From positions 8,405 through 72,404 of the forward strand of contig JAFSSP010000002.1 in the NCBI GenBank assembly GCA_017450945.1: 64,000 nt of DNA. Reading direction: 5' to 3'. The notes under the pieces are model-generated. The model did not search any database. It was given only the letters and a program-made list of their open reading frames with translations, and had not been told where the DNA came from. The stretch comes from Clostridia bacterium (GTDB lineage Bacteria; Bacillota; Clostridia; Oscillospirales; CAG-272). The stretch's first letter is position 1; each line of letters starts with the position of its first letter. Of the stretch, positions 9,758 to 28,244 are shown in pieces. The translations under genes were made by a program, and so were the position numbers.

Positions 9758-9766
9758 GGAGAAATC

Positions 9767-10888: not shown

Positions 10889-10900
10889 CGGAGGGAGAAC

Positions 10901-11917: not shown

Positions 11918-11932
11918 CGGAGGAATCACATC

Positions 11933-13250: not shown

Positions 13251-13267
13251 AAAGAAAACAACTATGT

Positions 13268-13296
13268 AAAAAGCGGCGCCATAGGCGCCGCTTTTT
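13268..13296. terminator. Hairpin terminator
   Basis: AAAAAGCGGCGCC-atag-GCGCCGCTTTTT, downstream of gene 13314..13673 (minus strand). Confidence 0.8.
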
Positions 13297-13313
13297 ACAT
13301 TTTTGCGGGTATT

Positions 13314-13673
13314 TTATGCCACAACAGCCGTCCTGATGGCTTCTTCGATCTCTGCGGCGATGTCGGGCGTCTGGCTGATGGCGTACACGATCAACGCGAT
13401 CACAACCGGGACAAGAACGGTTGCAACGATGCTGATGATACCGCCGACGGTGCCGAGAACGCGGCCTACTCTCACTTTACCGGTAACCGGGACGCCGGCA
13501 TCTACGTACACATTGGATTTGCCTCTTGCGATAAAGCCGAAGATGATGCCGAGAAAGCTGAGCCAGAAAGTGCAAAGGAAGCTTACCGACAGGATTCCGA
13601 ACACCAGAATGGGCGTTCTTTTGGGAAGGTTTTGGGCCTTTACAACTTCTTGATTGGTTTCATTGTTTGCCAT
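13314..13673 (-). CDS. Small membrane protein (DUF4190-like)
   Basis: 119 aa with two hydrophobic hairpin segments. RBS AGGAGA 7 nt upstream. Confidence 0.65.
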   Translation of the reverse strand: MANNETNQEVVKAQNLPKRTPILVFGILSVSFLCTFWLSFLGIIFGFIARGKSNVYVDAGVPVTGKVRVGRVLGTVGGIISIVATVLVPVVIALIVYAISQTPDIAAEIEEAIRTAVVA

Positions 13674-13764: not shown

Positions 13765-14337
13765 TCAGATCAACGATCCGGCTATTGCCCCGATCGTGAG
13801 CAAAATGAAGAAAATGCTCCAGATCACGGTCAGAACAATGCCGCAAACCAGTCCGAAAACGCCGAAAATTTTTCCGGTCGTGATCTTTCCGTCGCGAATT
13901 CCCTGCGCTGCATAGGAACTCGCTTTTCCCTTTGCAACCGCACCCAAAACAAGGGTTATAATGCTGGTGGAAAGGAAGATGGCCGAGTAGGTGTATAATC
14001 TTGCGATGATGTAATAGTAACTTCTGTATTCGGGGAGTACCACAAAGAAAAAGCCGAAAGAGCTCGTGATAAGAAACACCATCGCCAAGATCCCCAGTAC
14101 CAGGGGAGCGGCTACCGAACCGGTGGCAGGGGCAGGGGCATCCGGCGCCTGATAGGTATGCTGGGGTGCCTGATAAGTGGGTTGCGGAGCTTGGTAGGTC
14201 GTTTTGGGCGGGACTGCGGGCGCACTCCACTCTTCGGTGGACTGTGTTACGGGCTCGGCTCCCACTGCCGTACCGCAGTTGGGGCAAAAGGCCGCGTTGT
14301 CATCCAACTTGCTTCCGCATTTGGTGCAAAAAGCCAT
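13765..14337 (-). CDS. Zinc-ribbon / PQ-repeat / DUF4190-like membrane protein
   Basis: CTKCG..CPNCG ribbon, TYQAPQPTYQAPQHTYQAP repeats, then TM segments. The second ATG (14337) has better RBS spacing than 14343. Confidence 0.7.
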   Translation of the reverse strand: MAFCTKCGSKLDDNAAFCPNCGTAVGAEPVTQSTEEWSAPAVPPKTTYQAPQPTYQAPQHTYQAPDAPAPATGSVAAPLVLGILAMVFLITSSFGFFFVVLPEYRSYYYIIARLYTYSAIFLSTSIITLVLGAVAKGKASSYAAQGIRDGKITTGKIFGVFGLVCGIVLTVIWSIFFILLTIGAIAGSLI

Positions 14338-14397
14338 GATCATGTTCCTCTTTTCGTAAAATTTTTTTGAAGCTATAGTAAGCCGTGCAGGACGACA

Positions 14398-15351
14398 TTA
14401 CATCTTTTTTGCAGGCGCATCCACCGAATCAATAAACGCCTTGATCGCGGCGTCGTATTGCTCGGGAGCGTTGATCCGGATGCGCGAATGTCCTCCCTTT
14501 TCAAACCAGACAAGCTGTTTGTGTTTGGAGGGGCAAACGTCGTAGAGCTTTTGCGCTTTGTCGGGATCCGAATATTGATCCTCCCTGCCGTGTAGCATAA
14601 GGATCGGTTTTTGCAGGTTGAGAATCCTTTTTTTCGGGCCGTCGCCCACCGCGTCAGCGTGTGAAAAAACGCGGATGTAAAGCAAAACAAACCAGATAAA
14701 CGGATACTTCGGCCGCTTTTGCTCCTCCATGTGGCGAAGGAAGCTCGAATAGAAGCAGTCGTAGATCCCATCCACTGCAAGACCCACCACATAGTCGGGA
14801 CACTCGTTTGAGGCCGCCGCAAAGAGCGTGGTGGAAGAACCGATGCAAATGCCGTGCAGAAAGATCTTTTTCTGCCCTTTTTCATCGTGTAAAAACTTTG
14901 CCCAAGCGATCACATCGCGGTATTCTTTGTAGCCGATGCAGTTGAAGGTTCCCTCCGACAGGCCGTGACAGCGGTTGTCGATCACAAGGAAGTTACAGGC
15001 GGCCCCTTTGTAGGGAATGGCGTAATAGTAGGAGTAGCGCAGCGCCTCCATACGGCCGGGGACAATGATGGCCGTGCGGTCGTAGCCATAATCGTAGAAT
15101 TCGCCGGCCAGACGAAAACCGTCGCTGACGATCGAAACTTCGGATCTATAGGCCTCTTCGCCTTTGATCCATGCCTCGCCCTCGCGGTACATGCGGGCAA
15201 GCTCTTCATCGTCCGGCTCGCTGATCTCTCTTCCCCATTTGCCCGGTTTGTTGCGGACAAGAACAATGGTATAAACGATCCCGCCAACCAAAAATCCGGG
15301 GAACAGGAACAGCACAAAAATAATCAAAAAAACAATGAGTGCAATCTTCAA
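14398..15351 (-). CDS. Membrane-anchored alpha/beta hydrolase (paralog 3, Cys in nucleophile position)
   Basis: TTG start at 15351 follows GGAGGAA. TM helix present. Elbow reads GICIGSS where paralogs have GISMG. LHGREDQ and GGHSRI motifs. Confidence 0.75.
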   Translation of the reverse strand: MKIALIVFLIIFVLFLFPGFLVGGIVYTIVLVRNKPGKWGREISEPDDEELARMYREGEAWIKGEEAYRSEVSIVSDGFRLAGEFYDYGYDRTAIIVPGRMEALRYSYYYAIPYKGAACNFLVIDNRCHGLSEGTFNCIGYKEYRDVIAWAKFLHDEKGQKKIFLHGICIGSSTTLFAAASNECPDYVVGLAVDGIYDCFYSSFLRHMEEQKRPKYPFIWFVLLYIRVFSHADAVGDGPKKRILNLQKPILMLHGREDQYSDPDKAQKLYDVCPSKHKQLVWFEKGGHSRIRINAPEQYDAAIKAFIDSVDAPAKKM

Positions 15352-15365
15352 GGGGACTTCCTCCG

Positions 15366-17021
15366 TCAGACAAGGCCGATCATCCAGTGGTAGAGCGTCT
15401 GACCGCCGTACACCGGGCAAATTTCCAGCTCCGGGAAGGCATCGCCGAGGATCGTTTCCACATCGCCCGCACCGGCAAAGCCATCCTTGCCGCCGAACGC
15501 CATGCAAATCTCTTTTCCGTCGGGATCCAGATGTGCAAGACCAATGCGCAGAGCTTCTTTTAAGTCGTCCGAGGCCGCAACGATCTCGCCGTCGACCAGC
15601 GAAAGATATTGTCCTTTTTTCGCCGAAATCGTCTCTCCTTCAAAATCCTTGGTCGCAACCGTGAGAAGCAGAGCCGAAACGTTCTCGGCGCCGTCCTGCA
15701 TCAGACGAATACGATAGTCGGTATCCTCACTGCTCGCCACATCCATTTCGATGGCGCAGTATCCCTCGATCATGTTGGCGGTCGGGATCACGGTCACGCG
15801 GTCGGCTTTGCCCGAAAGAGAGGCCGCCTGGAGCGCCGCGCGAACCGAATTTTTGTTGTTGGGAAGGATCACGATGCGGTTTGCATTTGTTTTACGGATG
15901 GCGTCAAGGAATTCCTCGGCCGAGGTATTCATCTCGGAGGAGGCCTCGATCACCTTGGTGCAGCCGAGGTCGGTGAAAAGCGTTTTCATCTCTTCGCCGT
16001 TGACGACCGCAACGATGCCGAGCGGGGCAAGATCTCTCTCTCCCGCCTCTTTTTGCCGCTCGTTGTACTGGAGCTGCATGTTTTCGAGCTTGAAGGTCAA
16101 AAATTCGCCGTATCTGCGGGCAAACGCGATCACCTTTTCGGGCTCTTTGGTATGGACGTGCACCTTGAGCCGCGTGCCCTCGAGGACCGAGACGATCGAT
16201 TCGCCCATGGTTTCGAGCGTTGCAAGGAAGCTTTGCAGATCAAACTCCTTGTCATAGCCTTCGGTTTTGAGCAACCGGAGCAAAAACTCGGTGCAATAGC
16301 CTTTTTCAAAGCTGCTGGTTTCGTCAAAGAGGTCAAAGTCGGGAGTCTCTGCGACCGCGGAGGTTTCAAAATCGTTTTTTGCGAGGCTCTCGCCGGGCTT
16401 GCCTTCGAGAATGTCGCCCGAAAGGAACATGGCCATGCCCTCCACAAAAACGATATACCCCATCGCGCCGCTGTCAACGACGCCGGCTTTTCTCAAAACG
16501 TCGAGGAGCAGAGGCGTGTTGGCAAGGCTCTTTTTCATTTCTCTGACATAGAGCGAAAAGAGCTCCTTTGCGCCCTCGCACTCGTCAAGCTCGGGACGGA
16601 TATTTTCGAGGCCCTCTCTCGCCACGGTGAGGATCGTGCCCTCAACCGGGTGCGAAACCGCGGCGTATGCCTGACGGTAGCCGCTCTCAAAGGCGTCGAT
16701 GAGTTCCTTGTTGCCGATCTCTTCTTTCTCTTTTAAGGCGAGGTACCAGCCGCGGATGATCTGCGAGAGGATCACGCCCGAGTTGCCGCGCGCACCAAGC
16801 AGCGCGCCCGAGGAAAACTCGGAAAGATACTCTCCGACGCCGGGCTCGGGAGATGCGCTTCTAAGCCCCTTTTCGACGGTCAGGCGCATGTTGACGCCGG
16901 TATCGCCGTCGGCCACGGGAAAGACGTTGAGATCGTTAATTTTTTTCTCATGCAGACAGAGGTTGGCGTAGCCGTTTGCCAGCATTCCCTCCAGCTTCTG
17001 TCCGTCGATCCGATTGATCAT
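15366..17021 (-). CDS. DAK2-domain fatty acid kinase subunit (YloV/FakA family), copy 2
   Basis: NVFPVADGDTGVNM motif. ATG at 17021 follows AGGAGTG, so the longer TTG-start ORF to 17054 is less likely. Confidence 0.85.
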   Translation of the reverse strand: MINRIDGQKLEGMLANGYANLCLHEKKINDLNVFPVADGDTGVNMRLTVEKGLRSASPEPGVGEYLSEFSSGALLGARGNSGVILSQIIRGWYLALKEKEEIGNKELIDAFESGYRQAYAAVSHPVEGTILTVAREGLENIRPELDECEGAKELFSLYVREMKKSLANTPLLLDVLRKAGVVDSGAMGYIVFVEGMAMFLSGDILEGKPGESLAKNDFETSAVAETPDFDLFDETSSFEKGYCTEFLLRLLKTEGYDKEFDLQSFLATLETMGESIVSVLEGTRLKVHVHTKEPEKVIAFARRYGEFLTFKLENMQLQYNERQKEAGERDLAPLGIVAVVNGEEMKTLFTDLGCTKVIEASSEMNTSAEEFLDAIRKTNANRIVILPNNKNSVRAALQAASLSGKADRVTVIPTANMIEGYCAIEMDVASSEDTDYRIRLMQDGAENVSALLLTVATKDFEGETISAKKGQYLSLVDGEIVAASDDLKEALRIGLAHLDPDGKEICMAFGGKDGFAGAGDVETILGDAFPELEICPVYGGQTLYHWMIGLV

Positions 17022-17063
17022 GGAACGAACACTCCTGTTTGCTTCTTTTCTCAAAAGGAATTT

Positions 17064-18410
17064 TTATTTGTTGTCCTTTTTGCCCATCATTACAAGGCTC
17101 TTGGGGAGAATATAGGTTCCCGCAAATGCCACAAACATGGCGATGGCACAGATGAGGGTCATATAAGCCATTGCCTGCGAGCCCTCTTTTTTGCTTGCAT
17201 CCTTCAGGGCGACCAGCACCACGCCGGTTCCAAGCCCGGAAGCCACGCCGGAAAAGAGTCCCTGCACGGCAAAGTACATAGCCGAGTTGGAAATGCCGGT
17301 TCTTGCCTCTTCCTCAGCCGCAAGTTGAGCGGGGACCGAGTAAGCGACGGCAAAGAGCGAGCCGACCGCCATGGAGCAAATGAGTCCGCAGACCACCGAA
17401 AGGATGGTTTTGGGAAGTCCCGCACCAAGGAATTTGCCCACAAAGAACATGGCAAACATTCCGACGCCGAACAGAAGAAGAACATAGCGGAAAGCAAATC
17501 CGAATCCCTTTTTGCGCAGGATCACATTGTAAAGGATCAAGGTAAACGGAACCGGTGCAAAGGAGGTCGCCATGACCACCATCATATTGAGTCCCACAAA
17601 GGAGAAATACTCGTTGATGCCGCCGAGGAAAAGCTGTACGCCAAAGGTCATGAGCGCGTAGACGCACATCCAAAGCACATAGGTCTTGTTGCGGAAGGTG
17701 TGGCCGAGCGACTGAACGAGGTTGACCGATTTGACCTTTTCGACGTTCCCGAGTTCATCCTGGTTCTCTTTGATCATAAAGAGCGGAATGAGCATGGTCA
17801 GCGCCAGAGGCAGAACGATCAGCGCAACATACTTGATGTTGATACCGTTGAGCAAAATGCGAACCAGCACGTAGCCGATGATGAAATAGAAGATATCGCA
17901 AACCGACTTGACATTCGACATGAAGGTTCTGTCGGGCTCGTTGTCCACAATTTCGGTAAAGGTGGCGTAGTAGGTCACCATGGTCAGCGTATAGAAGCTA
18001 TAGAACACGCAAAGAACCACACCAAAGAAAATGGTGTTGCCGAGAGTGGCGCCCGAGGTGTTGGGAATGACAAGCGCAAACAGAAGGTAAGCCGCAACGG
18101 TCAGCACAAGGCCGATGAGGATCGACGGGCGGCGGCGCCCCCATTTGGTGCGCAAATTATCGGTAAAGGAAGCCATGGGAATGTCAATGATTCCGTCAAT
18201 GATCTTTGCAACCAAAACAAAGGTTGCCCAAACGGCGGCAACGACAAGATCCTTGCCAAGAAAAGTCTGGAAGGGGATCGCGTCAACACCGAATCCGCCG
18301 ACAAGCAGGGCGCTGCAAAGATAGGAGCCCATCATCAGGTTGAGCATATTGACGCCCATACCCGAGACGGCATAGACGAGCATTTGACTTCTTTTGGTTA
18401 ACCTTCTCAT
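17064..18410 (-). CDS. GPH (MelB/MFS_2) family cation symporter
   Basis: DGIIDIPMASFTDNLRTKWGRRRP matches the GPH loop signature (D..DP..G...D......GRRRP). Polytopic, 448 aa. Confidence 0.8.
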   Translation of the reverse strand: MRRLTKRSQMLVYAVSGMGVNMLNLMMGSYLCSALLVGGFGVDAIPFQTFLGKDLVVAAVWATFVLVAKIIDGIIDIPMASFTDNLRTKWGRRRPSILIGLVLTVAAYLLFALVIPNTSGATLGNTIFFGVVLCVFYSFYTLTMVTYYATFTEIVDNEPDRTFMSNVKSVCDIFYFIIGYVLVRILLNGINIKYVALIVLPLALTMLIPLFMIKENQDELGNVEKVKSVNLVQSLGHTFRNKTYVLWMCVYALMTFGVQLFLGGINEYFSFVGLNMMVVMATSFAPVPFTLILYNVILRKKGFGFAFRYVLLLFGVGMFAMFFVGKFLGAGLPKTILSVVCGLICSMAVGSLFAVAYSVPAQLAAEEEARTGISNSAMYFAVQGLFSGVASGLGTGVVLVALKDASKKEGSQAMAYMTLICAIAMFVAFAGTYILPKSLVMMGKKDNK

Positions 18411-18416
18411 TTTTCT

Positions 18417-19343
18417 TTAACCCTCCAGACATTTGGTCAGAATTTGTTTTTCGGCCTCAAGTCCCTCCGAGATCGGCGTGCCGACGTAGTAAGCGGCCAT
18501 AAGGCCGGGGCCTACGTTGATGCCGCAGGTGGGGTAAACGTCCTTGACGCAAACCTCCAGCGGGTGGAACTTCTCTTCGATCATGGCCTTATATTTTTCG
18601 GCCTGCGCCCTGCGGTTGCTCTGGGCGATGAAGATGACCTGTCCTTCGGGGTTGACAATGGTTTTTTCGATATAGCCGAGCAGAGCGGCGTAAGCGGCCT
18701 TCTCACCCTTGGCTTTTCCGATGACGGTGGTAAGCCCGTTGTAATCGAACTCGCCGATCGGTTTGATGCCGATGAGCGTGCCAAAGAAGGCGGCCGCGTG
18801 ATTGATGCGTCCCTTCTTTGCAACAAAGCTCAGATCGTCCAGCCAGCCTGCCTGGTGGTAAAGATTTTTGGTTTTTTCAAGCTCGGCCGCCGTTTCTTCC
18901 AGGCTGTGGCCCGCGGCACGGAACTTGGAGGCGTTGACCGCCATAAGACCGACTGCGGGGCCGAAGCGAAGCGAGTCGATCACTTCGATCTTGGCGTCCG
19001 GCATCTCTTCCAGCACCATGGCCTTTGCCTCGCACGCAAACTCGTAAGCGCCGCTGATCTTGCTTGAGAGCGCAAGGAACAGAACACCCTTCCCTTCGGA
19101 TACGATCTTCCGGAAAGCGTCGCGCACTTCGCCTGCGCTGGGGGGAGAGGTTTTGAAACGGTCGGGGTTTGCTTTGAGTGCGGAGTAAAACTCCTCTCTC
19201 GAAGTGGTTTCCCAACTGACAAAGGAATCGCTCTCCTTGCCGTCGATCACCAGATGTGCGATCAACATCTTGATCGAATACTTCTCCTGAAGATCCTTTT
19301 CCAGATCCGCGGAAGTATCTACCAAAATCTCAAAATCTGTCAT
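18417..19343 (-). CDS. DegV-family fatty-acid-binding protein (FakB-like), copy 2
   Basis: FEILVDTSADL start and FKTSPPS motif. 308 aa. Confidence 0.85.
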   Translation of the reverse strand: MTDFEILVDTSADLEKDLQEKYSIKMLIAHLVIDGKESDSFVSWETTSREEFYSALKANPDRFKTSPPSAGEVRDAFRKIVSEGKGVLFLALSSKISGAYEFACEAKAMVLEEMPDAKIEVIDSLRFGPAVGLMAVNASKFRAAGHSLEETAAELEKTKNLYHQAGWLDDLSFVAKKGRINHAAAFFGTLIGIKPIGEFDYNGLTTVIGKAKGEKAAYAALLGYIEKTIVNPEGQVIFIAQSNRRAQAEKYKAMIEEKFHPLEVCVKDVYPTCGINVGPGLMAAYYVGTPISEGLEAEKQILTKCLEG

Positions 19344-19357
19344 GTCGTTTTCCTTTC

Positions 19358-20305
19358 TTATGCTTCTGTATCGTCATTGAAACAGCGTTTCAAAAAACGG
19401 TCAACCGTTGTGTCGCCCTCCTCGGAGAGCTTTTGATAGCAAAGCGCGTGTGCCGCCCCCGGAACCGCAAGGAATTCCTTTTTGGAGGCACAGGCTTCAA
19501 AATTTTTGCGTCCGACCGAGATCGGGACTGTGCGATCCTCCTCGCCGTGGAGAAAGAGCGCGGGGATTTTTGTTTTTTTCAAGGATTCTTCAACCGAAAC
19601 CTTGAGGTCTTTGTGAAAGGCGCAAAGGCCGACCAGTCGTGCGACCGGCCGCATGAGGAAGATCGGCAGGTGCCTTTGTCTGGAATCACGAATGTACTGC
19701 CCGTATGGGCTTTCAAAGCCGCAATCAAGAATCATGCCCTTCACGCGACCGCCGTCCAGTTTGTCCGAGGCGTAGGCAATGGTGGCGCATCCCATGGAAA
19801 TACCCCAAAGAACGGCTTCCTCGGTATTGGTGTTTTCAAAAAGCCAGTCGATCCATTCTAAAAGATCCTCTTCTTCCACAACGCCGAGCGAGGGACGTCC
19901 CCCGCGGCTTGGTGTGTGCGCTCTGGAATAGGGGAGAAAAATGTTGTATCCTTTTTCGAGGAATTCGTTTGCGGCTCCGGCAAAATTGGTCAGCGGCCGC
20001 ACGCAAAATCCGTGGCAAAGAACAAGCGTTTTTTCGCTCTCCCCGGGATAGTAGTCGGCACAGAGCTGCAACTTTCCTTTGCGGCGCGCAACATGTTGCA
20101 CCGGGCGGCGCTCCAGACGTTCGACGTCGGCGCGCATCTCTTCAAGATAGGGTGCGGCGCTATCCTCTTCGGGGTGCTTTTCTTCCCAGGGATATTTCGG
20201 GGTTTTCTGGCGGAACACACCGAGAAAGGAGGCGATGACAGGCCCCACGATGAACAAAAGGTAGAGCCCGATCAGAGAGAGCAGAATAATCCAGAAGATT
20301 TCCAT
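19358..20305 (-). CDS. Membrane-anchored alpha/beta hydrolase (paralog 4)
   Basis: TM helix, GISMGCAT, LHGEEDRTVP and PGAAHA motifs. Closest to paralog 1. RBS AAGAGG. Confidence 0.85.
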   Translation of the reverse strand: MEIFWIILLSLIGLYLLFIVGPVIASFLGVFRQKTPKYPWEEKHPEEDSAAPYLEEMRADVERLERRPVQHVARRKGKLQLCADYYPGESEKTLVLCHGFCVRPLTNFAGAANEFLEKGYNIFLPYSRAHTPSRGGRPSLGVVEEEDLLEWIDWLFENTNTEEAVLWGISMGCATIAYASDKLDGGRVKGMILDCGFESPYGQYIRDSRQRHLPIFLMRPVARLVGLCAFHKDLKVSVEESLKKTKIPALFLHGEEDRTVPISVGRKNFEACASKKEFLAVPGAAHALCYQKLSEEGDTTVDRFLKRCFNDDTEA

Positions 20306-20314
20306 AAAACCTCT

Positions 20315-21262
20315 TTACAGGGAAATTGCTTTTTGTGCCGGAACAAGCTTTTGCAGGGATCTGCCCATCTTTGCTTCGTAGCGCCAGATGAGCGCCACGC
20401 GCGCGGAGTCTCCGCAAAGGGCAAGATACAGCGGAGGCGTCCCCTCATAAATGCCACAGAGGGACAGGGCGTTCTCTTTGAGAGAGGATTGCCGATAGAC
20501 TTCTCGCGCCCGCTCTTCCACTTCGCGACAGAAAAGCTCCTTCTCTCCCGCGGGGATCTCTTTTGCAAACAGCCCGACCGGCTCCTGCGAAACGGCGACA
20601 AGCGCGGCGGTATCGGTGGTGCAGATCGAAAACCGGAAAATCCCGGACACAAAGCCGGATTTGGTTCTTTTGAGCTTCCAGTTCTTTGGTTCGTAGGCAA
20701 GACTTTTTGAGACGGCATGCCCCAAAAGCGTCCAGGCAAACAGTTCTTTTTGGCTCTTTTCCGGCGGCATCTTTTTGATGGCGCGCAGAAGCGCTTTTGG
20801 CAAAGGACTGTCAAGCGGGGGCAATTCCTCCGAAAAGGACGCGATATAGACGTCAAGCACCGGACGCGCGCGCCAGCTTTTGCGCGCGGCCTCCTCCAGT
20901 TCGCAAAAATGTCTGCCGAACACGCACTCGTTGGCAAAATGCTCGCAGTTGTTCTTGAGAATGTCGTAACCGCCTTCTCCGATCCTTTCGCGGGCGATCT
21001 TCATCGTTTTTTTCGGAGAAAAGCGACTCCGCCGCTCGGCGCGGTCGAGCGAGGCGACCTCCACCAGCTTGCCGGCGGAAAACTCGTCAATGCTCACACT
21101 TTTTACAAAGATTTTGGAGGCGTCGCGGTTCAGCCCGTCGAGCGGTGCGTCTCCGAACTCGATGACCTCATCGTCCGAGCAGTAAACGCCGTAGTGACAA
21201 ATGGCGCCCACATGGATGCGGATCATATCTCCCGGAGAGCAATCGGCAAGGATCCACTTCAT
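20315..21262 (-). CDS. LRAT/PLAAT-like (permuted NlpC/P60) domain fused to a Sfp-type PPTase-like domain
   Basis: N-terminal half has GDMIRIHVGAICHYGVY (His box) and NNCEHFANECVFG (Cys box). C-terminal half parallels Sfp (PEKSQK.., LLGHAVSKSL, FRFSICTT..LVAVSQEPVGLFAKE), but the GxD Mg site is not conserved. Confidence 0.6.
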   Translation of the reverse strand: MKWILADCSPGDMIRIHVGAICHYGVYCSDDEVIEFGDAPLDGLNRDASKIFVKSVSIDEFSAGKLVEVASLDRAERRSRFSPKKTMKIARERIGEGGYDILKNNCEHFANECVFGRHFCELEEAARKSWRARPVLDVYIASFSEELPPLDSPLPKALLRAIKKMPPEKSQKELFAWTLLGHAVSKSLAYEPKNWKLKRTKSGFVSGIFRFSICTTDTAALVAVSQEPVGLFAKEIPAGEKELFCREVEERAREVYRQSSLKENALSLCGIYEGTPPLYLALCGDSARVALIWRYEAKMGRSLQKLVPAQKAISL

Positions 21263-21510
21263 TTCAGTTTTTTCTCGATGTAATCGACCACGTCGCCAAG
21301 CGTAACAAAATCGTTCATGCCGACGTTGTCAAAACGCATGGAAAAAGTCTCCTCAATGGCAAGGATCATATAGAGCATCCCGATCGAGGAAAGACCGACG
21401 TCGCTGGTGAGATTGGAATTTTCTTCAATCGCGTCCAACGAGTCTCTTTTGGCCGGGTCGGCTGAGAGCAGAATGCTTTTGAGCGTATCGATGATCTGTT
21501 GTCTTTCCAT
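21259..21510 (-). CDS. Acyl carrier protein, non-canonical attachment motif
   Basis: 83 aa. DVGLSSIGMLYMILAIEE occupies the place of DLGxDSLD. Overlaps its neighbours by 4 nt on one side and is 1 nt from the other. Confidence 0.75.
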   Translation of the reverse strand: MERQQIIDTLKSILLSADPAKRDSLDAIEENSNLTSDVGLSSIGMLYMILAIEETFSMRFDNVGMNDFVTLGDVVDYIEKKLK

Positions 21511-21511
21511 A

Positions 21512-23023
21512 TCAGTTCTTTTCCAGTTTGTAGCGGATGATCTTCATGCTGGGCGTGCGGACAAAATCGGTCTCGCGGATCACGATCTTCTGCGCGCGCT
21601 CGTAAGCCGGGAGCGATTGATTGACCTTCACCAGCTCGGCCATGAGAACTTCCATCGGCTTCTCGGCGCCGAGCTTTGCGATCTCGGTCATACGCGGGAC
21701 GACCTCAAGCGAGAGATAGTGCTTGCCGTTCTCGTCGACCGCCTCGAAGATCTGGCTGTCCTGCACAAGTTCGATCTTGTTGAAGAAGGCTTCGACTTCG
21801 GCGGGAGAAATGTTCTCTCCGTTGTCGAGAATGATGAGTTCCTTTTTGCGGCCGGTGATGTAGAGGAAGCCCTCGTCGTCAAAGCGGACAAGGTCGCCGG
21901 TCTTGAACCAACCGTCTTCAAAGGCGGCCGCGTTCTCCTCGGGATCGCCCACATAGCCGTCCATCAGGTTTGCACCCTTGAGCCAGAGCTCGCCGTCCAC
22001 GATCTTTACCTCCTGGTTTGGGTAAAGGAGGCCGACCGAATCCGGCTTTGCGAGGAAATCCGGGTTGCCGGAAACCAGGTTCGCAGTTTCGGTAAGTCCG
22101 TAGCCCGGGCAAAGGTGAATGCCCATTTTCTCATACTCGGTTACAAGGTAGGGGGCAACTGCGGCCGCGCCGCAGATGATGTATTTCATATCCTCGCCGA
22201 GCATGTTCTTGCCGAATCTGCGCGAGAGGGCGAGCGCCATCTCGGCAAGCGCCGGAACCACCACCAGCATGGTGGGGCGGAACATGGCGATATCGCGGAA
22301 GAGATCCTTGTTATCCTTGCAGATAAAGAGCGCGCTTCCGGTGTAAAGCGAGGTCAGAAGGTTGCGGATAAGTCCAAAGACGTGCGAGAGCGGGATGGCG
22401 AGCAGATAGCGCTGGCCGTACACCACCTCCAGACCGTAACAGCCGTTTGCGGTGCCTTGCATGACCGCGCGGTTGGAAAGCAGAGCTCCCTTGCTCTTGC
22501 CAGTCGTGCCGCCGGTGAACATGATGGCGCAGCCGTCCTCGGGTTTTACGTTTTTGTTGATCGGGCTTCCCTTCTCCGCCGCCGCATCGGTAGAAATGCA
22601 GGGAATGCCTTTTGCCTTTGCGATGTTCAGTTTGCCCTCCAGCACGGGAGCATACAGGATCGCCTTGGCCGAAAACTTCATGGTCACGCCGAACAGACTC
22701 ATCTCGTCGAGCTGTGCAGGAATCACGGCGGCGGTCATGCCGCTGGTCGAAACGGCAAGAAAAGCCTTGACAAACTCATAGGAGTTGGGGGCAAAGACCG
22801 AGACCCGGTCGCCGGCCTTGAGTCCGGCACCCAGAAGCGCGGTGCGAAGGATCGCCGCGTCGGCTTCCAATTCCGAGAAGGTGTGGGTTTGTCCATCGTA
22901 AACGATGGCCGGGCTGTCGGCATACTTCATAAGGCAGTTCTCCCACATCTCGCTTGTTGTGCCAAAGGCGCGGATGCTCGAGAAGAGCTCGGGGGACTGG
23001 TAATCTGCAAAGGTCTTTTTCAT
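21512..23023 (-). CDS. Acyl-AMP forming fatty-acid ligase (AMP-binding family)
   Basis: FTGGTTGKSKG, GYGLTET and GWFKTGDLVRFDDEGFLYITGRKKELII motifs. Confidence 0.88.
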   Translation of the reverse strand: MKKTFADYQSPELFSSIRAFGTTSEMWENCLMKYADSPAIVYDGQTHTFSELEADAAILRTALLGAGLKAGDRVSVFAPNSYEFVKAFLAVSTSGMTAAVIPAQLDEMSLFGVTMKFSAKAILYAPVLEGKLNIAKAKGIPCISTDAAAEKGSPINKNVKPEDGCAIMFTGGTTGKSKGALLSNRAVMQGTANGCYGLEVVYGQRYLLAIPLSHVFGLIRNLLTSLYTGSALFICKDNKDLFRDIAMFRPTMLVVVPALAEMALALSRRFGKNMLGEDMKYIICGAAAVAPYLVTEYEKMGIHLCPGYGLTETANLVSGNPDFLAKPDSVGLLYPNQEVKIVDGELWLKGANLMDGYVGDPEENAAAFEDGWFKTGDLVRFDDEGFLYITGRKKELIILDNGENISPAEVEAFFNKIELVQDSQIFEAVDENGKHYLSLEVVPRMTEIAKLGAEKPMEVLMAELVKVNQSLPAYERAQKIVIRETDFVRTPSMKIIRYKLEKN

Positions 23024-23691
23024 GATCTATCTCCTTCTGCAATTTTTTTGAGTTCTGCTTCTTTTTCTCTTAAAAATTCACTGAATTTCTGAATGCTGTC
23101 CATGGACGGCATGGCGCCAAGCCTCTCTCGGACGTCGATCGGCTCGCCGATGCAATAAACCGTGCGGCGATACCATTTTTCGGGCGTTTTTGAATAGATC
23201 GGAACGATCGGAACGCCGCTCCGGATCGCCATCATCACCAAGCCGGATTTGAAAACGTCCACCTCGGCTTCACTGGCGTTCACATGCCCTTCGGGATAGA
23301 TCGAAACGATGTTCCCAGCGGTCAGGTGATCGGTGATCTCGCGGAAGGTGCCGAGATTGAAGTTTTTGCGGTTCACCTCGATGCAGTGAAAGGCGTAGGT
23401 GAAGAGCCAGCGGGTAAACTTTTTTTCAAAAAGCTCGTCGGCGGCAACAAAGTGCATGCGCCGGTACCAAATTGAAAACTGGTCGCGCGCGGGATCGAGA
23501 AGACCTGTGTGGTTAAAAGACAGGACGGCACCGCCGCAGATCTTCTTTTTTGCGGCCGCATTCTCAAATCTCCACTTGGGCCGCAGAATGAGAAGCCAGC
23601 CCGGTGCGGCCAGAAGCCGACCAAAATCGTACAGAGCGTAGCGAAGATCGATGATGCGCGCTTTTTTATTTCTTTGCTTTTTTTGCTTCAT
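23020..23691 (-). CDS. PlsC-type acyltransferase (LPLAT) B
   Basis: ATG at 23691. NHTGLLD (HX4D) and IYPEGH boxes. Overlaps the upstream LPLAT by 26 nt and the downstream ligase by 4 nt. Confidence 0.75.
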   Translation of the reverse strand: MKQKKQRNKKARIIDLRYALYDFGRLLAAPGWLLILRPKWRFENAAAKKKICGGAVLSFNHTGLLDPARDQFSIWYRRMHFVAADELFEKKFTRWLFTYAFHCIEVNRKNFNLGTFREITDHLTAGNIVSIYPEGHVNASEAEVDVFKSGLVMMAIRSGVPIVPIYSKTPEKWYRRTVYCIGEPIDVRERLGAMPSMDSIQKFSEFLREKEAELKKIAEGDRS

Positions 23692-24313
23692 ACTCTTCCA
23701 AAAGATCGCCCAGTTCCATGATCCTTTCCCGGTATTTTTCCGAAATGCGGGCGAGCTGTTCCTTTTCGGACAGCGACGTGTCAAGATAGGCCAAGGTATC
23801 GATCGGTTTCCCGATCAAAACCGAAAGGCGTTTCTTTTTGAAATAAGAGCCGTTGGTATAAACCGGGATTACCGGAACGCCGCTCGAGAGGGCGAGGTAG
23901 GCCACGCTCGGCACAAAGGGGAGCGGCCGCGCCTCACCCGGAAGCGGAAGCCGACTCTCCGGGAAGACCAGAACCACGCCGCCCTTTTCCAGAATCTTTT
24001 TGGATTTTTCCACAAATCCGTAGTCATGGGCCTTGCGATCCACGCGGATGCCGCCCAGCCATTTGAGCAGGATGCGCAGTCCCTTTTTTTCAAAGAGGAC
24101 TTCGGCCATCTGCGCCCGGACGGTTCTGAAGAAAAAGACAAACAGGATCGCGACATAATCGAGGACCGAGGTGTGGTTGCTGATGATGATCGCGGGCCCT
24201 TTGATCCTTTTGCTTTGTATTTGTTTATCCTCGTAAAAGACGCGCGGCCGAAAGCAAATCACTTCGGTAAGCCAGCCCGTGATCTTTACGAAGGTGTTCC
24301 AAAATGTTATCAT
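23666..24313 (-). CDS. PlsC-type acyltransferase (LPLAT) A
   Basis: NHTSVLD (HX4D) and VFPESRL boxes. RBS AAGGAAG. Confidence 0.8.
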   Translation of the reverse strand: MITFWNTFVKITGWLTEVICFRPRVFYEDKQIQSKRIKGPAIIISNHTSVLDYVAILFVFFFRTVRAQMAEVLFEKKGLRILLKWLGGIRVDRKAHDYGFVEKSKKILEKGGVVLVFPESRLPLPGEARPLPFVPSVAYLALSSGVPVIPVYTNGSYFKKKRLSVLIGKPIDTLAYLDTSLSEKEQLARISEKYRERIMELGDLLEEYEAKKAKK

Positions 24314-24343
24314 GTATTCTTCCTTTTCAAGAAGCGTTTCGGG

Positions 24344-26278
24344 TCAGCTTTTCTTTTGCTCCCGGATGTAGTCGGCGATCTGTCCTATGGTGCAAAGATT
24401 CAACCCGCCCGAGACCGGGAAGGGTACCGAAAACTCTTTTTCGATCCGCACGGCCAAAGAAAAGTAATCGAGGCTTGTGCCTTCCCCGTCCGAGAAAAAG
24501 TGGTAATCCTCTCCCATGGTATCAACCGGACGGCCGAGCGCCTCCGAAAAGAGGAGCGCCACGCGCCGGGATAGCTCGTCGCCAAGTTCAGAGGTCGCGC
24601 TCCCAAAGGTCAGTTCGGGATATGCGCCTTCTTGGTAGCGTTTTGCGATGCGCCTGCGGTTGAGCTTGATCTCGTCACCAAAAAGCAGGTCTTTCGAGGT
24701 CAGACAGATCTTCCTGATCTGCCCGGTCAGCTGCAATTCGTCCAGCTTTTTTTGCAGAGCGGCGCGCAGGCCGTCGGCAGTCTCTTGATTGATCCTGCGG
24801 TCGACCGAGGCAATGAGAAGAGGCTCGACCCGACTCTCTTTTTTGATGCCGACAAGGCAAATACTCTGCAAGTGCTCGATCTTTGAGAACGCGGCCTCGA
24901 TGATCGTGGGGTTGAGATTTTCCCCGGCCTCTGAGACGACCAGATCGTCGGACCTGCCGAGGATGAAATATCTCCCCCGCTCCTGCTTTGCAAGATCCTT
25001 TGATAAAAACCAGCCGTTCTTTTCGATGCGGCGGTCTCCTTCCAGAACATACTTTGCCGCGGCCGTGGACTTGATGAGAAGCTGACCGCCTTCGTCGACC
25101 GAATACTGCGCCGAGGGGAGCGGTTTTCCGACCGAGCCGCCGTCAAGGATCCTTTTGTCATCCGAAAGCTCCACCGAGGTGATCCCCACCTCGGTCATGC
25201 CGTAACCGTTGGAAAGATGGTAGCCGATCGCGTTGAAGAATTCCAGAACCTCACCGTGGATCTCACTGCCGCCGGTGATCATATAGCTTATGCTTTCGCC
25301 AAAGAGTTTTTCACGCACCTCTTTATAGGCCAGGCGCGAGAACAGCCGCTCGATCGCCGGGAATTTTTGCAGTTTGCGCGAGAGCTCCATGCCCTTTTGA
25401 AACTTCTTTGCAGTCTCTTCCTTGGCTCCGATGGTCTTCATCGCCTCGGCATAGACCCGGTTCCAGAACAGCGGCACGGCAAACAGGTGGGTGACCTTGT
25501 GGCGGCGGATGGTGGAAAGAATGGTATCGGGCGAAAGATCTTTGAGCTCCACCAGCGTGCGCGAGAAAAAGGTGAACCAGGCGTAAAGTGCCACAAACCC
25601 AAAGATGTGATAGAAAGGCAGAAAGGCGAGCAGCTTAAGCTCTCCTTCATAGTGCCGTTTGATCAGTTTGGACTCGGCAAGGATCTCTCTGGTATCAAGG
25701 ATCTGGCAGGCCAACTCTTTTGCCGAGTAAGCGCAGATCTTGACCGTCTCGGACGTGCCGGAAGACATAAAATAAAACTCCTCGCCGAAAGGGGCGTTTT
25801 GGGGAAGCGCGGCGTCGGAGGGTTTCATCTCGTCCGTCCGGATGGTGCGGATCGAAAATTCTTCTCCACCCGAGATCACGGCAACCGCCTTCATGCGGGC
25901 AAGCGCGTCCTCCAGGATCTCTTTTCCGAGGCGCGCGTTCAAAAGCAGTGGGCAAAAGCCTGCTCTGAGGATCGCCCAATAGCACTCGATCCAGGCAAGG
26001 CCGTTTTCAAGAAAGAGGCCTACCGCACTGCCGGTCGGCGCATCCGAAAGCATCTGTTTCAGCCCCGGGGCAAGACGCTCGATCTCATCCTTGCATTCCC
26101 CGTAGGTCGTTTTCTTGATGCGATAGCCCTCGCTGCTCTCAAATAAAATATTCTCCCGCTCGGAAAACATGAGTTCATAGAGCGCAGAGAAGGATCTATC
26201 TGTTTGTTCCAACCTGCCGAGCTTCCAGGAAACATACTGATCGATGCTTCTGAAGCCGGCCAAATTCTGAATTTTCAT
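24344..26278 (-). CDS. Acyl-AMP ligase fused to a C-terminal carrier (PP-binding-like) domain
   Basis: ATG at 26278. SSGTSETVK, GYGMTE and GWFLSKDLAKQERGRYFILGRSDDLVV motifs. C-terminus DGEGTSLDYFSLAVRIEKEF resembles a carrier Ser motif. Confidence 0.8.
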   Translation of the reverse strand: MKIQNLAGFRSIDQYVSWKLGRLEQTDRSFSALYELMFSERENILFESSEGYRIKKTTYGECKDEIERLAPGLKQMLSDAPTGSAVGLFLENGLAWIECYWAILRAGFCPLLLNARLGKEILEDALARMKAVAVISGGEEFSIRTIRTDEMKPSDAALPQNAPFGEEFYFMSSGTSETVKICAYSAKELACQILDTREILAESKLIKRHYEGELKLLAFLPFYHIFGFVALYAWFTFFSRTLVELKDLSPDTILSTIRRHKVTHLFAVPLFWNRVYAEAMKTIGAKEETAKKFQKGMELSRKLQKFPAIERLFSRLAYKEVREKLFGESISYMITGGSEIHGEVLEFFNAIGYHLSNGYGMTEVGITSVELSDDKRILDGGSVGKPLPSAQYSVDEGGQLLIKSTAAAKYVLEGDRRIEKNGWFLSKDLAKQERGRYFILGRSDDLVVSEAGENLNPTIIEAAFSKIEHLQSICLVGIKKESRVEPLLIASVDRRINQETADGLRAALQKKLDELQLTGQIRKICLTSKDLLFGDEIKLNRRRIAKRYQEGAYPELTFGSATSELGDELSRRVALLFSEALGRPVDTMGEDYHFFSDGEGTSLDYFSLAVRIEKEFSVPFPVSGGLNLCTIGQIADYIREQKKS

Positions 26279-26348: not shown

Positions 26349-26377
26349 ATTATAACATAACTATAGTCTGCTGTCAA
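26349..26377 (-). promoter_or_regulatory. Promoter of the 11-gene lipid operon (TTGACA-17-TATAAT)
   Basis: Minus strand reads TTGACAgcagactatagttatgtTATAAT, about 64 nt upstream of ATG 26278. Confidence 0.7.
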
Positions 26378-26483: not shown

Positions 26484-26512
26484 TTGACATCCTCTGAAAA
26501 CCGTTTTATAAT
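26484..26512 (+). promoter_or_regulatory. Promoter of the abrB-like/ABC operon (TTGACA-17-TATAAT)
   Basis: TTGACAtcctctgaaaaccgtttTATAAT. Confidence 0.7.
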
Positions 26513-26549
26513 TTTGTAAGAAAAGTAAGAAATGTAAGGAGGATAAAGA

Positions 26550-26759
26550 ATGAAAGAACAAACGGAAGACCGCTTTATCGTCAGCGTCAAAGTCGGTCCA
26601 AAAGGGCAAATCACCATTCCCGCCGAGGCGCGGAAAATGTTTGATATCAAAGAGGGGGACACCCTCATGGTAATGGGCGACCGGGCGCGCGGCATTGCGC
26701 TGGTCAAGTCCGACGCGTTTTATTCTTTGATGGGAGGTGCATTCCATGTCGATCATTAA
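26550..26759 (+). CDS. AbrB/MazE/SpoVT-family DNA-binding protein
   Basis: VKVGPKGQITIPAEARKMFDIKEGDTLMV is a swapped-hairpin SpoVT-AbrB motif. RBS AAGGAGG. Confidence 0.8.
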   Translation: MKEQTEDRFIVSVKVGPKGQITIPAEARKMFDIKEGDTLMVMGDRARGIALVKSDAFYSLMGGAFHVDH

Positions 26760-27483
26760 AACCGAAAAACTGCGCAAGGTTTACAAGGACGTCGTGGCGC
26801 TCGAAGGGCTTGATCTTGCCATCGAGGAGGGCGAGCTCTTCTCGCTTCTCGGAGTCAACGGCGCCGGAAAAACCACAACGCTCAAAATGCTGACCGGTCT
26901 TACAAAGCCGACCGGCGGCGACGCGATCCTTTGCGGGCACTCGATTCTGACCGAATCCGATCGTCTCCGCGGCCTTGTCGATATCTCGATGCAGGAGACC
27001 GCCGTTGCGCGCAAGCTGACCGTGGAAGAGAACATCGCCTTTTACGCCGAGCTCTGCGGACAAACAAAAAAAGAGCAGGCCGAAACGGTCGCCTCGCTCT
27101 CCAAAACCTTTGGATTTGAAAAAGTCCTCAACAAACAGGCGCAAAAGCTCTCGGGCGGCTGGCAGAGAAAGCTCTCGATCGCCCTCGCGCTCGTCTCCAA
27201 CCCGAAAATCCTTTTCCTCGACGAGCCGACGCTCGGCCTTGACGTGCTGGCCCGTCGCGAGCTCTGGAACACCATTTCCTCGCTCAAAGGGAAAATGACC
27301 ATCATTCTGACCACGCACTACATGGAAGAGGCCGAGGCCCTCTCGGATCGCATCGGCGTTCTCAAAGACGGCCGTCTCCTGTTTGTCGGCAAAAAGGAAG
27401 AACTGTTTGCGCTGACCGACAAAAATTCGGTGGAAGAAGCCTTTATTGAACTGGTTTCCGGGAAAGGAGGACAGCCCGCATGA
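26746..27483 (+). CDS. ABC transporter ATP-binding protein
   Basis: GVNGAGKTT Walker A, LSGGWQRKL signature, ILFLDEPT Walker B. ATG at 26746 follows GGGAGGTG. Confidence 0.9.
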   Translation: MSIIKTEKLRKVYKDVVALEGLDLAIEEGELFSLLGVNGAGKTTTLKMLTGLTKPTGGDAILCGHSILTESDRLRGLVDISMQETAVARKLTVEENIAFYAELCGQTKKEQAETVASLSKTFGFEKVLNKQAQKLSGGWQRKLSIALALVSNPKILFLDEPTLGLDVLARRELWNTISSLKGKMTIILTTHYMEEAEALSDRIGVLKDGRLLFVGKKEELFALTDKNSVEEAFIELVSGKGGQPA

Positions 27484-28232
27484 AACAATCGCTTGCAAGG
27501 ATCCGCGCCCTGACCGGCCGGAATATAAAAGAACTTCTTCGCGATCCGCTCTCGCTCGTCTTCCTGATCCTCATGCCGCTCGGCATGGAGATCCTGTTTT
27601 ACTTTTTGTTCAGCAAACTGACCTCGCAGTTCCAGATGAAGTATCTCGCGCCCGGTATCGTGGTCTTCTCGCAATCCTTCCTCACGCTCTTCTCTGGCCT
27701 TATGATCGCCGTCGACCGCTCGAGCGCCTTTTTGACCCGGCTTTACGTTTCCAGCGCAAAGCCGCATGAGTTCATTTTTGGCTATGCCTTCTCTCTTTTG
27801 CCGATCTCGCTCGCCCAGTCGATCCTCTTCTTTGTCGTCGGCGGCATCATCGATCCCTCGCTCTTCTCGGCCCGCATGATCGCAGCCGTGGCAGTCTCGC
27901 TGATCCCGGCGGTCTTCTTTATCGGCAGCGGGATCTTATTCGGCTCGCTCTGCACCGAAAAATCGATCGGAGGAGTTGCCTCGATCCTCATCGCCGGACA
28001 GTCGATGCTCAGCGGCATGTGGTATCCCATCGACGGACTCGGAAAAGGAATGCTCACGCTGATGAACGTCCTGCCCTTCCGCCCCGCAACCCTGCTCGTG
28101 CAAAATCTTTTGGGCGGCGTTGCCTCGCCCTTTGACGATTTTGTAAAACCGCTCCTCATCGTCCTTGCCTATACCGTCGCCATCTTCACCGCCGCCATCT
28201 TCGCCTTCGGCAGTAAGATGAAGGCGAAATAA
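27480..28232 (+). CDS. ABC-2 type exporter permease
   Basis: 250-aa polytopic protein. ATGA overlap with the ATPase gene. Confidence 0.8.
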   Translation: MKQSLARIRALTGRNIKELLRDPLSLVFLILMPLGMEILFYFLFSKLTSQFQMKYLAPGIVVFSQSFLTLFSGLMIAVDRSSAFLTRLYVSSAKPHEFIFGYAFSLLPISLAQSILFFVVGGIIDPSLFSARMIAAVAVSLIPAVFFIGSGILFGSLCTEKSIGGVASILIAGQSMLSGMWYPIDGLGKGMLTLMNVLPFRPATLLVQNLLGGVASPFDDFVKPLLIVLAYTVAIFTAAIFAFGSKMKAK

Positions 28233-28244
28233 TGGGGAAGTTTT

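Follow-up and report, generated by a model that had tools for sequence, protein, structure and literature searches.

We propose that an operon of eleven genes in a Clostridia bacterium (GTDB lineage Bacteria; Bacillota; Clostridia; Oscillospirales; CAG-272) encodes a carrier-protein-dependent system for lipid salvage and re-acylation, built from two split Aas-like modules and insulated from housekeeping fatty-acid metabolism, a reading whose chances we put at about even. The genes, g01 to g11, are back-to-back open reading frames (ORFs) that run from 26278 to 14398 on the minus strand of the window, by which we mean the whole stretch of 64,000 nucleotides that was analyzed (GenBank assembly GCA_017450945.1, contig JAFSSP010000002.1, positions 8,405 to 72,404 of the forward strand). 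In order, they encode an adenylate-forming ligase fused to a carrier domain, two PlsC-family lysophospholipid acyltransferases (LPLATs), a second ligase, a free-standing acyl carrier protein (ACP), a protein joining a lecithin retinol acyltransferase (LRAT)/PLAAT-type domain to the fold of an Sfp-type phosphopantetheinyl transferase (PPTase), an alpha/beta hydrolase, a DegV/FakB-type protein, a transporter, a FakA-type kinase and a second protein with the alpha/beta hydrolase fold. Direct support comes from the domains of these proteins, their gene order, its conservation, gene fusions in relatives and the paralogy of several genes to housekeeping copies.

A sigma-70-type promoter on the minus strand (26349-26377) matches TTGACA-17-TATAAT at 12 of 12 positions, carries the TG of an extended -10 element and lies about 65 nt 5' of the g01 ATG (26278), which is preceded by GAGG. 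Promoter-like matches are not enriched over the whole region (9 versus 8.1 +/- 3.7 in shuffled sequences), and the argument for this promoter therefore relies on its perfect match and its position, not on match counts. With the best-supported starts, the ten junctions from g01 to g11 measure +30, -26, -4, +1, -4, +9, +14, +6, +42 and +14 nt. An earlier annotation of this DNA made from its letters, the sequence-only reading, had described the same promoter, the same eleven genes and the same range of junctions, from a 26-nt overlap to a 42-nt gap, and had seen no terminator hairpin between genes; all of this was borne out. We considered and rejected a division of the unit by internal terminators or promoters: terminator-like matches on the minus strand within 14398-26278 are all short stems of 5-8 bp inside coding sequence and occur at chance level (32 versus 25.2 +/- 4.5 in shuffles), so that all that was found were weak intragenic pattern matches at chance frequency. 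Rfam models detected no known RNA family or riboswitch in or near the 5' leader of the operon.

The 3' boundary that had been placed at 14398 is too short. No terminator follows g11, and the first strong intrinsic terminator 3' of the promoter (13264-13300, minus strand; a 17-bp stem with 9 GC pairs) comes only after two genes for small membrane proteins. The first of these, g12 (13765-14343, minus strand), begins 54 nt 3' of g11 and encodes a zinc-ribbon protein (Zn_Ribbon_1) with three transmembrane helices; the second (13314-13673, minus strand) encodes a 119-aa protein that was read as a membrane protein from its sequence, has no Pfam match and possibly has a weak promoter of its own, TTGACG-17-TATAAA. 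The transcription unit probably extends through both. On the far side of the terminator lies g13 (12201-13250, minus strand), an alpha/beta hydrolase (Hydrolase_4) with the elbow motif AHSAG and a signal-anchor of the exported type.

At the other end, a second perfect TTGACA-17-TATAAT promoter (26484-26512, plus strand) stands back to back with the operon promoter, 107 nt apart from it. It opens a divergent unit (26484-28339, plus strand) of a 69-aa AbrB/MazE-fold gene (26550-26759), an ATP-binding cassette (ABC) ATPase (26737-27483) and an ABC-2 permease (27480-28232), which closes at a bidirectional terminator (28311-28339).

One argument that the eleven genes belong together is that their order recurs. 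We scanned GTDB species representatives for relatives of g06, which gave more than 534 loci, and mapped the best 80 with the proteins of the window. All 80 belong to Clostridia from gut, rumen or faeces, for the most part metagenome-assembled genomes (MAGs) of Oscillospiraceae, Ruminococcus and "Eubacteriales". At least 25 of them, a count that grows if contigs cut at an end are included, show the complete g01-g11 order with tight junctions at 35-65% amino-acid identity (type I). Gene-neighborhood conservation thus upholds the earlier view of the operon as one unit. A Ruminococcus-type variant (8 loci) is without g09 only, and g04-g05 are missing in 4 loci. The loci are deeply diverged, with median identities of 34-56% to the window proteins, and by estimate the relatives pack their genes no less tightly than the window does, with junction medians from -35 to +20 nt.

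At least 22 further loci (type II) consist of g01, an extended transporter, g02-g06 and usually a g13-type hydrolase, and they are without FakA, DegV, g07 and g11. Since it is absent from type II loci, the FakA/FakB-hydrolase half of the operon is an accessory module. Could the operon then be two independent modules, g01-g06 for acylation and g07-g11 for the FakA/FakB-hydrolase pathway, that are merely adjacent and transcribed by read-through? Type II loci, which hold the first module by itself, and one locus (L055), in which the modules stand in a different order, speak for it, but at least 25 species, with identities of 35-65%, retain an exact order of eleven genes with junctions of a few nucleotides, and the 9-nt junction between g06 and g07 leaves no room for a promoter. 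In addition, the transporter gene lies between DegV and FakA in type I loci and beside g01 in type II loci, which makes it a component common to both halves. We consider mere adjacency very improbable.

Clustering of the 471 ORFs that flank the 80 loci gave two recurrent neighbors, both mostly downstream: zinc-ribbon membrane proteins (34 loci, all on the strand of the cluster) and g13-type hydrolases (36 loci, most on that strand), the latter being the only hydrolase of type II loci. No gene recurs upstream of g01 in the 80 loci, which agrees with the promoter in placing the start of the conserved block at g01; the block runs from g01 to g13. That no other neighbor recurs argues that the gene set is self-contained.

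Domains were assigned with Pfam and NCBIfam profiles at the cut-offs of the models. NCBIfam has no above-cut-off equivalog for g01-g07, g09, g11 or g13, and no operon protein reaches the model of a characterized equivalog. The domain list of the sequence-only reading was nevertheless matched by these profiles in every item except the PPTase half of g06, in which the fold is kept and the catalytic motifs are lost.

The proposal includes two pairs of ligase and carrier. The 644-aa product of g01 (24344-26278, minus strand) is an adenylate-forming ligase (PF00501, 9e-37) that ends in a carrier domain (PF00550, 5e-6) with the serine motif GTSLD; a motif of the GGTSLD type is conserved in its homologs. 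The second ligase, g04 (503 aa; 21512-23023, minus strand; PF00501, 1e-60), is of the fatty-acid type: its best NCBIfam matches, all below cut-off, are long-chain-fatty-acid ligases, and its PDB matches include FadD13 and FadD5. One nucleotide from it begins g05 (83 aa; 21259-21510, minus strand), a dedicated ACP that matches PF00550 and ACP models, with the serine motif GLSSI; the pattern G(L/F)(S/N/T)S(V/I) is kept in about 67 of 73 copies. Both carriers therefore have the serine to which phosphopantetheine would be attached, in motifs that most homologs conserve. Translational coupling links g04 to g05 and g05 to g06, in the window and in relatives. The two ligases are 26% identical to each other. 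Together with the FakA/FakB pair described below, three routes of fatty-acid activation are encoded, where two parallel ones had been recognized before.

The two acyltransferases, g02 (23666-24313, minus strand; PF01553, 2e-17) and g03 (23020-23691, minus strand; PF01553, 2.5e-17), overlap by 26 nt. Both have the HX4D motif of the PlsC family, as NHTSVLD in g02, which also has FPESR, and as NHTGLLD in g03; the best PDB match of g02 is PlsC (5kym). Gene fusions in relatives indicate how these enzymes may be paired. In three loci (L026, L031 and L042) g02 and g03 are fused, and in two (L046 and L064) g03 and g04 form one protein of 705-722 aa in which the acyltransferase precedes the AMP-binding domain. 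The fusion protein of L064 aligns in a single stretch to positions 440-1063 of PRK08633, an acyl-[ACP]--phospholipid O-acyltransferase model of proteins that unite an MFS, an acyltransferase and a ligase part. These fusions tie the second acyltransferase to the g04/g05 activation pair and the two acyltransferases to each other. They also lend independent support, through a match to both domains of an Aas-type protein, to the analogy with E. coli LplT/Aas that the sequence-only reading had drawn.

The protein encoded by g06 (20315-21262, minus strand) has two halves. Its N-terminal half is a PLAAT/LRAT-type Cys-His domain with the permuted NlpC/P60 fold (PF04970, 4e-19; 69.5 bits against a cut-off of 24.3), the Cys106 (NCEHF) and His23 of which are invariant in 73 of 73 homologs. 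The C-terminal half (20315-20860, minus strand) is a degenerate PPTase with the Sfp fold. In the window it has no Pfam match and was recognized through homologs, most of which carry PF01648, through the family profile and through its predicted fold. The family profile matches PLAAT2, PLAAT3, PLAAT4, an LRAT chimera, Sfp and AcpS in the PDB, and a Foldseek search with an AlphaFold2 model (pLDDT 86) gave PLAAT3 (TM-score 0.78-0.81) and Sfp (E 1e-4). The alignment shows GLFAKE in place of GVDIE, and deletion of the WTxKES region, in the window copy and in the relative nearest to it. Of 73 homologs, 57 retain the GxDxE and WxxKE motifs; these are also lost in about 9-15 other lineages, among them several loci of the Ruminococcus type, whose proteins measure 255-283 aa. 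The window copy, the sole degenerate copy that was modeled, is still predicted to adopt the Sfp fold. Because the LRAT residues are invariant in all 73 homologs and the PPTase motifs are intact in 57, the LRAT half is, judged by conservation, the indispensable part of g06, and the degenerate PPTase domain may persist as a module for docking carriers. By analogy with its relatives, the LRAT domain should take an acyl group from a lipid ester or a thioester onto its cysteine, as a thioester. The LRAT-PPTase architecture is present at full length in roughly a hundred of the 150 best clusters at 50% identity, with 633 clusters found at E <= 1e-30.

We also considered whether g06 could be a lipoprotein N-acyltransferase similar to LnsA of S. 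aureus, an NlpC/P60 enzyme (PMC7387801). This candidate was rejected on the grounds that g06, the other half of which is a cytoplasmic PPTase fold, has no signal sequence or transmembrane helix.

The presence of private carriers and a fused Sfp-type PPTase raises a different question: is the operon a specialized-metabolite cluster, either similar to a nonribosomal peptide synthetase cluster or directed at a lipid? In such a cluster, g01, as an adenylation-peptidyl carrier unit, and the g04/g05 ligase-ACP pair would load two different acids, one of which need not be a fatty acid, the PlsC-type and LRAT enzymes would assemble them on a small acceptor, the transporter would export the product or import the acceptor, and FakA/FakB would supply one of the building blocks. 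Export has a precedent in MFSD2B, a lipid exporter of the transporter family (MFS_2) to which g09 belongs. Private carriers and the fused PPTase are hallmarks of secondary metabolism, the ligases are only 26% identical and may therefore differ in substrate, and profile matches do not fix the specificity of g01. Aryl-polyene clusters likewise join ACPs, an AMP-ligase and an LPLAT, which couple a special acid to a lipid anchor (PMC8253772). However, no ketosynthase, ketoreductase, dehydratase, condensation domain, thioesterase, reductase, methyltransferase or glycosyltransferase is linked to the cluster in the 80 loci; in particular, neither g01-g13 nor their recurrent neighbors contain condensation, ketosynthase, thioesterase or reductase release domains. 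Moreover, the two ligases are closer to fatty-acid/ANL class I enzymes than to adenylation domains for amino acids, the g03-g04 fusion mirrors the architecture of Aas, and FakA/FakB, DegV and lysophospholipase-type hydrolases are enzymes of salvage. We regard a metabolite cluster as possible, though rather unlikely.

That the carrier-dependent salvage system we favor would be an addition to general fatty-acid metabolism follows from a second locus in the same window. About 3 kb from the operon, on the plus strand (7233-12160), lies a housekeeping set of fakA (7233-8870), degV/fakB (8888-9757), plsX (10901-11917) and acpP (11933-12160). The operon copies are 36% (FakA), 26% (DegV) and 32% (ACP) identical to them. 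Judged from these sequences, the FakA, DegV and ACP of the operon are extra, dedicated paralogs, and the operon would not be the general route of the cell. The operon pair itself is unambiguous in type. g08 (18417-19343, minus strand) matches PF02645 (2e-58) and TIGR00762 (205 bits versus 99.7), and g10 (15366-17021, minus strand) has the Dak2 (PF02734), FakA_M and FakA_C domains (PF21645, PF13684) and the motif DGDTG, and scores 473 bits against a TIGR03599 cut-off of 396. The equivalogs of S. aureus FakA (NF038248, 347 versus 975 bits) and FakB1 (NF038249, 107 versus 350 bits) are not reached. The FakA and DegV pieces recognized in the sequence-only reading are thus genuine. The housekeeping locus also encodes, at 9767-10888, a protein of 373 aa that matches GNAT weakly, and it converges on the g13 hydrolase.

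The two hydrolases of the operon differ in their nucleophile. g07 (19358-20305, minus strand; Abhydrolase_1, Hydrolase_4) has a serine in its elbow (GISMG), as has g13, while g11 (14398-15351, minus strand; Hydrolase_4, Abhydrolase_1; TTG start with GGAGG 5' of it) has a cysteine (GICIG), which is kept as G-I/V-C-I-G in 37 of 38 homologs. Unlike simple esterases, enzymes that transfer acyl groups, such as polyhydroxyalkanoate synthase, BAAT and dienelactone hydrolase, typically have a cysteine here. The PDB matches of g07 and g11, generic esterases and proteins of the haloperoxidase fold, are uninformative. Both proteins are tethered to the membrane. g07 has one N-terminal transmembrane helix, with lysine and arginine mainly after the helix in 39 of 45 homologs, and in g11 these residues follow the helix in 33 of 37; in g13-type hydrolases they precede it. 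By the positive-inside rule, we predict cytoplasmic catalytic domains for g07 and g11 and an exported one for g13. Release of lipids by secreted hydrolases of the operon, as envisaged earlier, consequently does not fit g07 and g11; only g13, which lies outside the unit as it was then drawn, looks exported.

The transporter, g09 (17064-18410, minus strand), belongs to MFS_2, the GPH or MFSD2A-MelB family within the major facilitator superfamily (MFS) (PF13347, 3e-28; 99 bits versus a cut-off of 27), and no protein of the cluster is more conserved, with 63-72% identity over the 120 matches listed of 1,778 (E <= 1e-10). GPH/MelB models of NCBIfam are below cut-off (gph, 49.6 versus 231 bits), and the parallel that had been drawn to LplT does not hold at the level of the family. 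In a Foldseek search with an AlphaFold2 model (pLDDT 74), MFSD2A with bound lysophosphatidylcholine (7mjs) and MelB are equally close (TM-score about 0.7), at about 14-16% sequence identity, in agreement with an MFS fold of 12 transmembrane helices. A phmmer search of the PDB with g09 returned spurious phage matches only, and a profile of its homologs recovered only the loop-2/3 motif of plant SUC1 and reached neither MFSD2A nor MelB. Helix 2 has a DxxxD-P motif, the D72 and D76 of which are invariant in the homolog alignment; we take these to resemble the cation-site aspartates of MelB and MFSD2A, an alignment made by eye that serves as a lead only. The MFS_2 transporter of type II loci is larger, about 640 aa (5002-6924 in L038). 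Its gene directly follows g01 and does not stand between DegV and FakA, and a C-terminal extension of about 200 residues resembles further membrane helices and has no Pfam match.

Hydrolases and transporter together bear on whether the lipids handled come from outside the cell. The same chemistry could serve self-repair or remodeling, in which the bacterium would re-acylate its own lysolipids (produced by bile, by phospholipases of the host or of competitors, or by turnover of lipoproteins or lipids) and edit their acyl chains, so that the acceptor is endogenous. E. coli LplT/Aas guards against phospholipase attack (PMC11416262), and PLAAT-type enzymes remodel acyl chains in situ (PMC4624172). 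Self-repair would also agree with the predicted cytoplasmic orientation of g07 and g11, and with the 8 loci that have no transporter and keep all else. Yet the transporter, where present, is the most conserved protein, the exported-type g13 hydrolase is syntenic in 36 loci, the distribution is confined to the lipid-rich habitats of gut and rumen, and a second FakA/FakB pair suggests fatty acids of exogenous origin. We consider self-repair rather unlikely.

Several observations weigh against lipid salvage by re-acylation. First, g01 is a generic ANL ligase, the best matches of which (MenE, 4-chlorobenzoate and fatty-acid ligases) are all far below cut-off. Second, simple re-acylation of two positions does not account for three activation systems in one operon, and a dedicated PPTase with private carriers is more typical of specialized-metabolite clusters than of salvage. 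Third, the modeled fold does not separate g09 from a sugar symporter, and sequence profiles reach neither of its two structural relatives. Fourth, neither import via g09 nor the second carrier is obligatory, given the 8 otherwise complete Ruminococcus-type loci without g09, which also qualify the earlier claim of lipid import by the transporter, and the 4 loci without g04-g05. Fifth, the 80 loci offer no clue to a head group in the form of a recurrent glycerophosphodiester phosphodiesterase, CDP-alcohol transferase, kinase or glycosyltransferase (the glycosyltransferase beside L038 is a single case), which leaves the acceptor lipid unnamed. Finally, all carriers of the cluster that we found are MAGs. 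The NCBI members of ten homolog clusters are likewise all MAGs with generic annotation, the window protein is present in metagenome assemblies only, and database names do not go beyond "MFS transporter" or "lecithin retinol acyltransferase family protein".

How, then, might the salvage system work? The sequence-only reading had set out four steps, in which hydrolases and the PLAAT-like enzyme release fatty acids or lysolipids, the transporter imports them, activation loads them onto carriers and the two LPLATs rebuild a diacyl lipid. The parts for these steps are present; their order, the substrates, the direction of transport, the pairing of LPLAT with carrier and what the LRAT domain does are what we infer in the following scheme. 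Extracellular lysolipids and free fatty acids would be produced by the exported g13-type hydrolase or by phospholipases of the host, diet or bile, and g09 would take up or flip an amphipathic acceptor of the lysolipid type. Inside the cell, g04 would adenylate a fatty acid and load it onto g05, and g01 would load its own carrier domain in cis. In most species the Sfp-type half of g06 would prime both carriers; in the window this half is predicted from its motifs to be inactive, and another PPTase would prime them. g02 and g03 would then move the carrier-bound acyl chains to a glycerol-based acceptor, yielding a diacyl lipid. The Cys-His domain of g06 and g11 would form acyl-thioester intermediates, and these thiol enzymes may move or edit acyl groups that pass between lipid and carrier, or free carriers that are mis-loaded. 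In type I loci, the dedicated FakA/FakB and the serine hydrolase g07 would add a path that leads from ester-bound or free fatty acids to acyl-phosphate. The private carriers would in this way channel foreign acyl chains without mixing them into the AcpP pool of type II fatty acid synthesis (FASII).

The closest mechanistic relative of this scheme is the LplT/Aas pair, described as a lysolipid remodeling and repair pair of Gram-negative bacteria (PMC11416262). Like it, the operon joins in one unit an MFS transporter, a PlsC-type acyltransferase and an adenylate-forming synthetase. E. coli Aas channels acyl-ACP exclusively to its own acyltransferase domain (PMC6167442), and in the operon activated acyl groups would similarly be channeled to a dedicated acyltransferase, with g03 and g04 fused in the Aas order in two relatives. 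The private carriers would provide such insulation in trans. The differences are several. The operon is found in Gram-positive Clostridia, has two acyltransferases and two ligases where the Aas system has one of each, and has private carriers (one fused, one stand-alone) where Aas uses the housekeeping ACP; its transporter is of the MFS_2 and not the LplT family, and scores of 25-160 bits compare with Aas cut-offs of 886-1349. In the window, acyltransferase and acyl-ACP synthetase are separate genes, the Aas-order fusion being present only in L046 and L064. Against the Aas equivalog models (PRK08043, PRK08633 and PRK06814), g02 and g03 score 18-48 bits and the fused relatives 115-160 bits, versus the same cut-offs. 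Since fusion, equivalog scores and transporter family all fail to conform, the operon is placed by its sequences outside the LplT/Aas family, although it would work like a member.

In Chlamydia trachomatis, AasC and LpaT, which activate exogenous fatty acids, are encoded by split, adjacent genes (PMC6167442). The operon shares with them an acyl-ACP synthetase and a lysophospholipid acyltransferase as separate neighbors, but the chlamydial enzymes use the housekeeping ACP, their acyl-ACP enters FASII, and they come without private carriers, PPTase, LRAT domain, FakA/FakB or a linked transporter. Compared with the FakA/FakB-PlsX pathway of Firmicutes, the operon has a full three-domain FakA in g10 and a DegV in g08, which differ in being second copies embedded among carrier-dependent acyltransferases. 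The N-terminal fold of g06, with its invariant NCEHF cysteine and histidine, is that of the mammalian PLAAT/HRASLS-LRAT proteins (thiol acyltransferases/phospholipases A1/2), but it is cytoplasmic and bacterial, and where those proteins have a C-terminal membrane anchor, g06 has an Sfp-type PPTase. As to Sfp-type PPTases, the C-terminal half of the g06 family matches PF01648 and Sfp, with motifs intact in the 57 homologs mentioned, whereas the window copy keeps the fold without the catalytic motifs. Finally, g09 shares its Pfam family with MelB and with MFSD2A, the Na+-dependent lysophosphatidylcholine symporter; they are its best structural matches, but at the identity given above they lie beyond the reach of profiles.

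The nearest physiological analog is the route of mitis-group streptococci, Gram-positive commensals in which the diacyl phospholipid phosphatidylcholine (PC) is rebuilt by successive acylations from scavenged deacylated host lipid, that is, glycerophosphocholine (GPC) or lysophosphatidylcholine (lysoPC) (PMC6805115). Yeast Gpc1/Ale1 provide a similar route; the parallel is drawn from physiology and not from homology, with choline lipids a candidate substrate at most. The streptococcal study reportedly left the acylation genes unassigned. In the searchable full-text literature we found analogs only: the combination of this cluster is not described, nor is an operon-linked second FakA/FakB pair or an LRAT-PPTase fusion, which accords with the initial impression that no described system combines all of these parts. 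A bolder version of our proposal, which we offer as a long shot, is that the operon is the missing gene set with which Gram-positive gut anaerobes, independently of de novo synthesis, turn lysolipid or glycerophosphodiester of the host or the diet into diacyl phospholipid (for example, PC from lysoPC or GPC, or a product of plant lyso-galactolipid in the rumen). In this version the PLAAT-PPTase protein would be a new type of enzyme, in which the PPTase fold docks the carrier and the LRAT half moves acyl chains directly, and in either direction, between phospholipid ester and phosphopantetheine thiol, independently of ATP. Docking of carriers would explain why the fold outlasts its catalytic motifs.

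Other features of the window may be noted briefly. On the plus strand, a second possible trio of hydrolase, transporter and acyltransferase (3224-6810) consists of a Hydrolase_4 alpha/beta hydrolase (3224-4189), a Glt_symporter-like membrane protein (4268-5644) and a 389-aa PlsC-family acyltransferase (5641-6810); the latter two genes overlap by 4 nt, and a tRNA-Ser follows at 6900-6988. About 23 kb of the window is lipid-related. A bacterial class A RNase P RNA (236 bits) lies at 1450-1809 on the minus strand, and the 204-aa ORF that overlaps it (1251-1865, plus strand) is probably no gene. Similarly, an ORF at 39281-40060 spans tRNA-Met, tRNA-Glu and a Gut-1 RNA (RF01706, 64.8 bits), which follow one another at 39299-39565 on the plus strand, and only its C-terminal part matches the family of 23S rRNA-intervening-sequence proteins. 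A DUF6937 and DUF6938 protein with very strong Pfam matches (31641-33077, plus strand) overlaps a melibiase-like gene (30035-31651) by 11 nt. Near the start of the window, a 184-aa protein (131-685, plus strand) with a C-terminal domain of the PqqD family, similar to the recognition element of ribosomally synthesized and post-translationally modified peptides, is followed by two ORFs without a Pfam match.

Oscillospiraceae and related Clostridia are abundant in the human gut and the rumen, but most have not been cultured, and little is known of how they deal with the large supply of lipids from diet, bile and host. Should our proposal hold, it would account for the separation of foreign acyl chains from FASII, and it would provide a first functional context for bacterial LRAT/PLAAT homologs that are fused to PPTases. 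It would also supply candidate genes for pathways of lysolipid and GPC acylation that are, to our knowledge, known only biochemically, as well as markers by which a capacity for lipid scavenging may be recognized in metagenomes. In this operon, Gram-positive anaerobes could have a new way to assimilate lipids or to edit their membranes.

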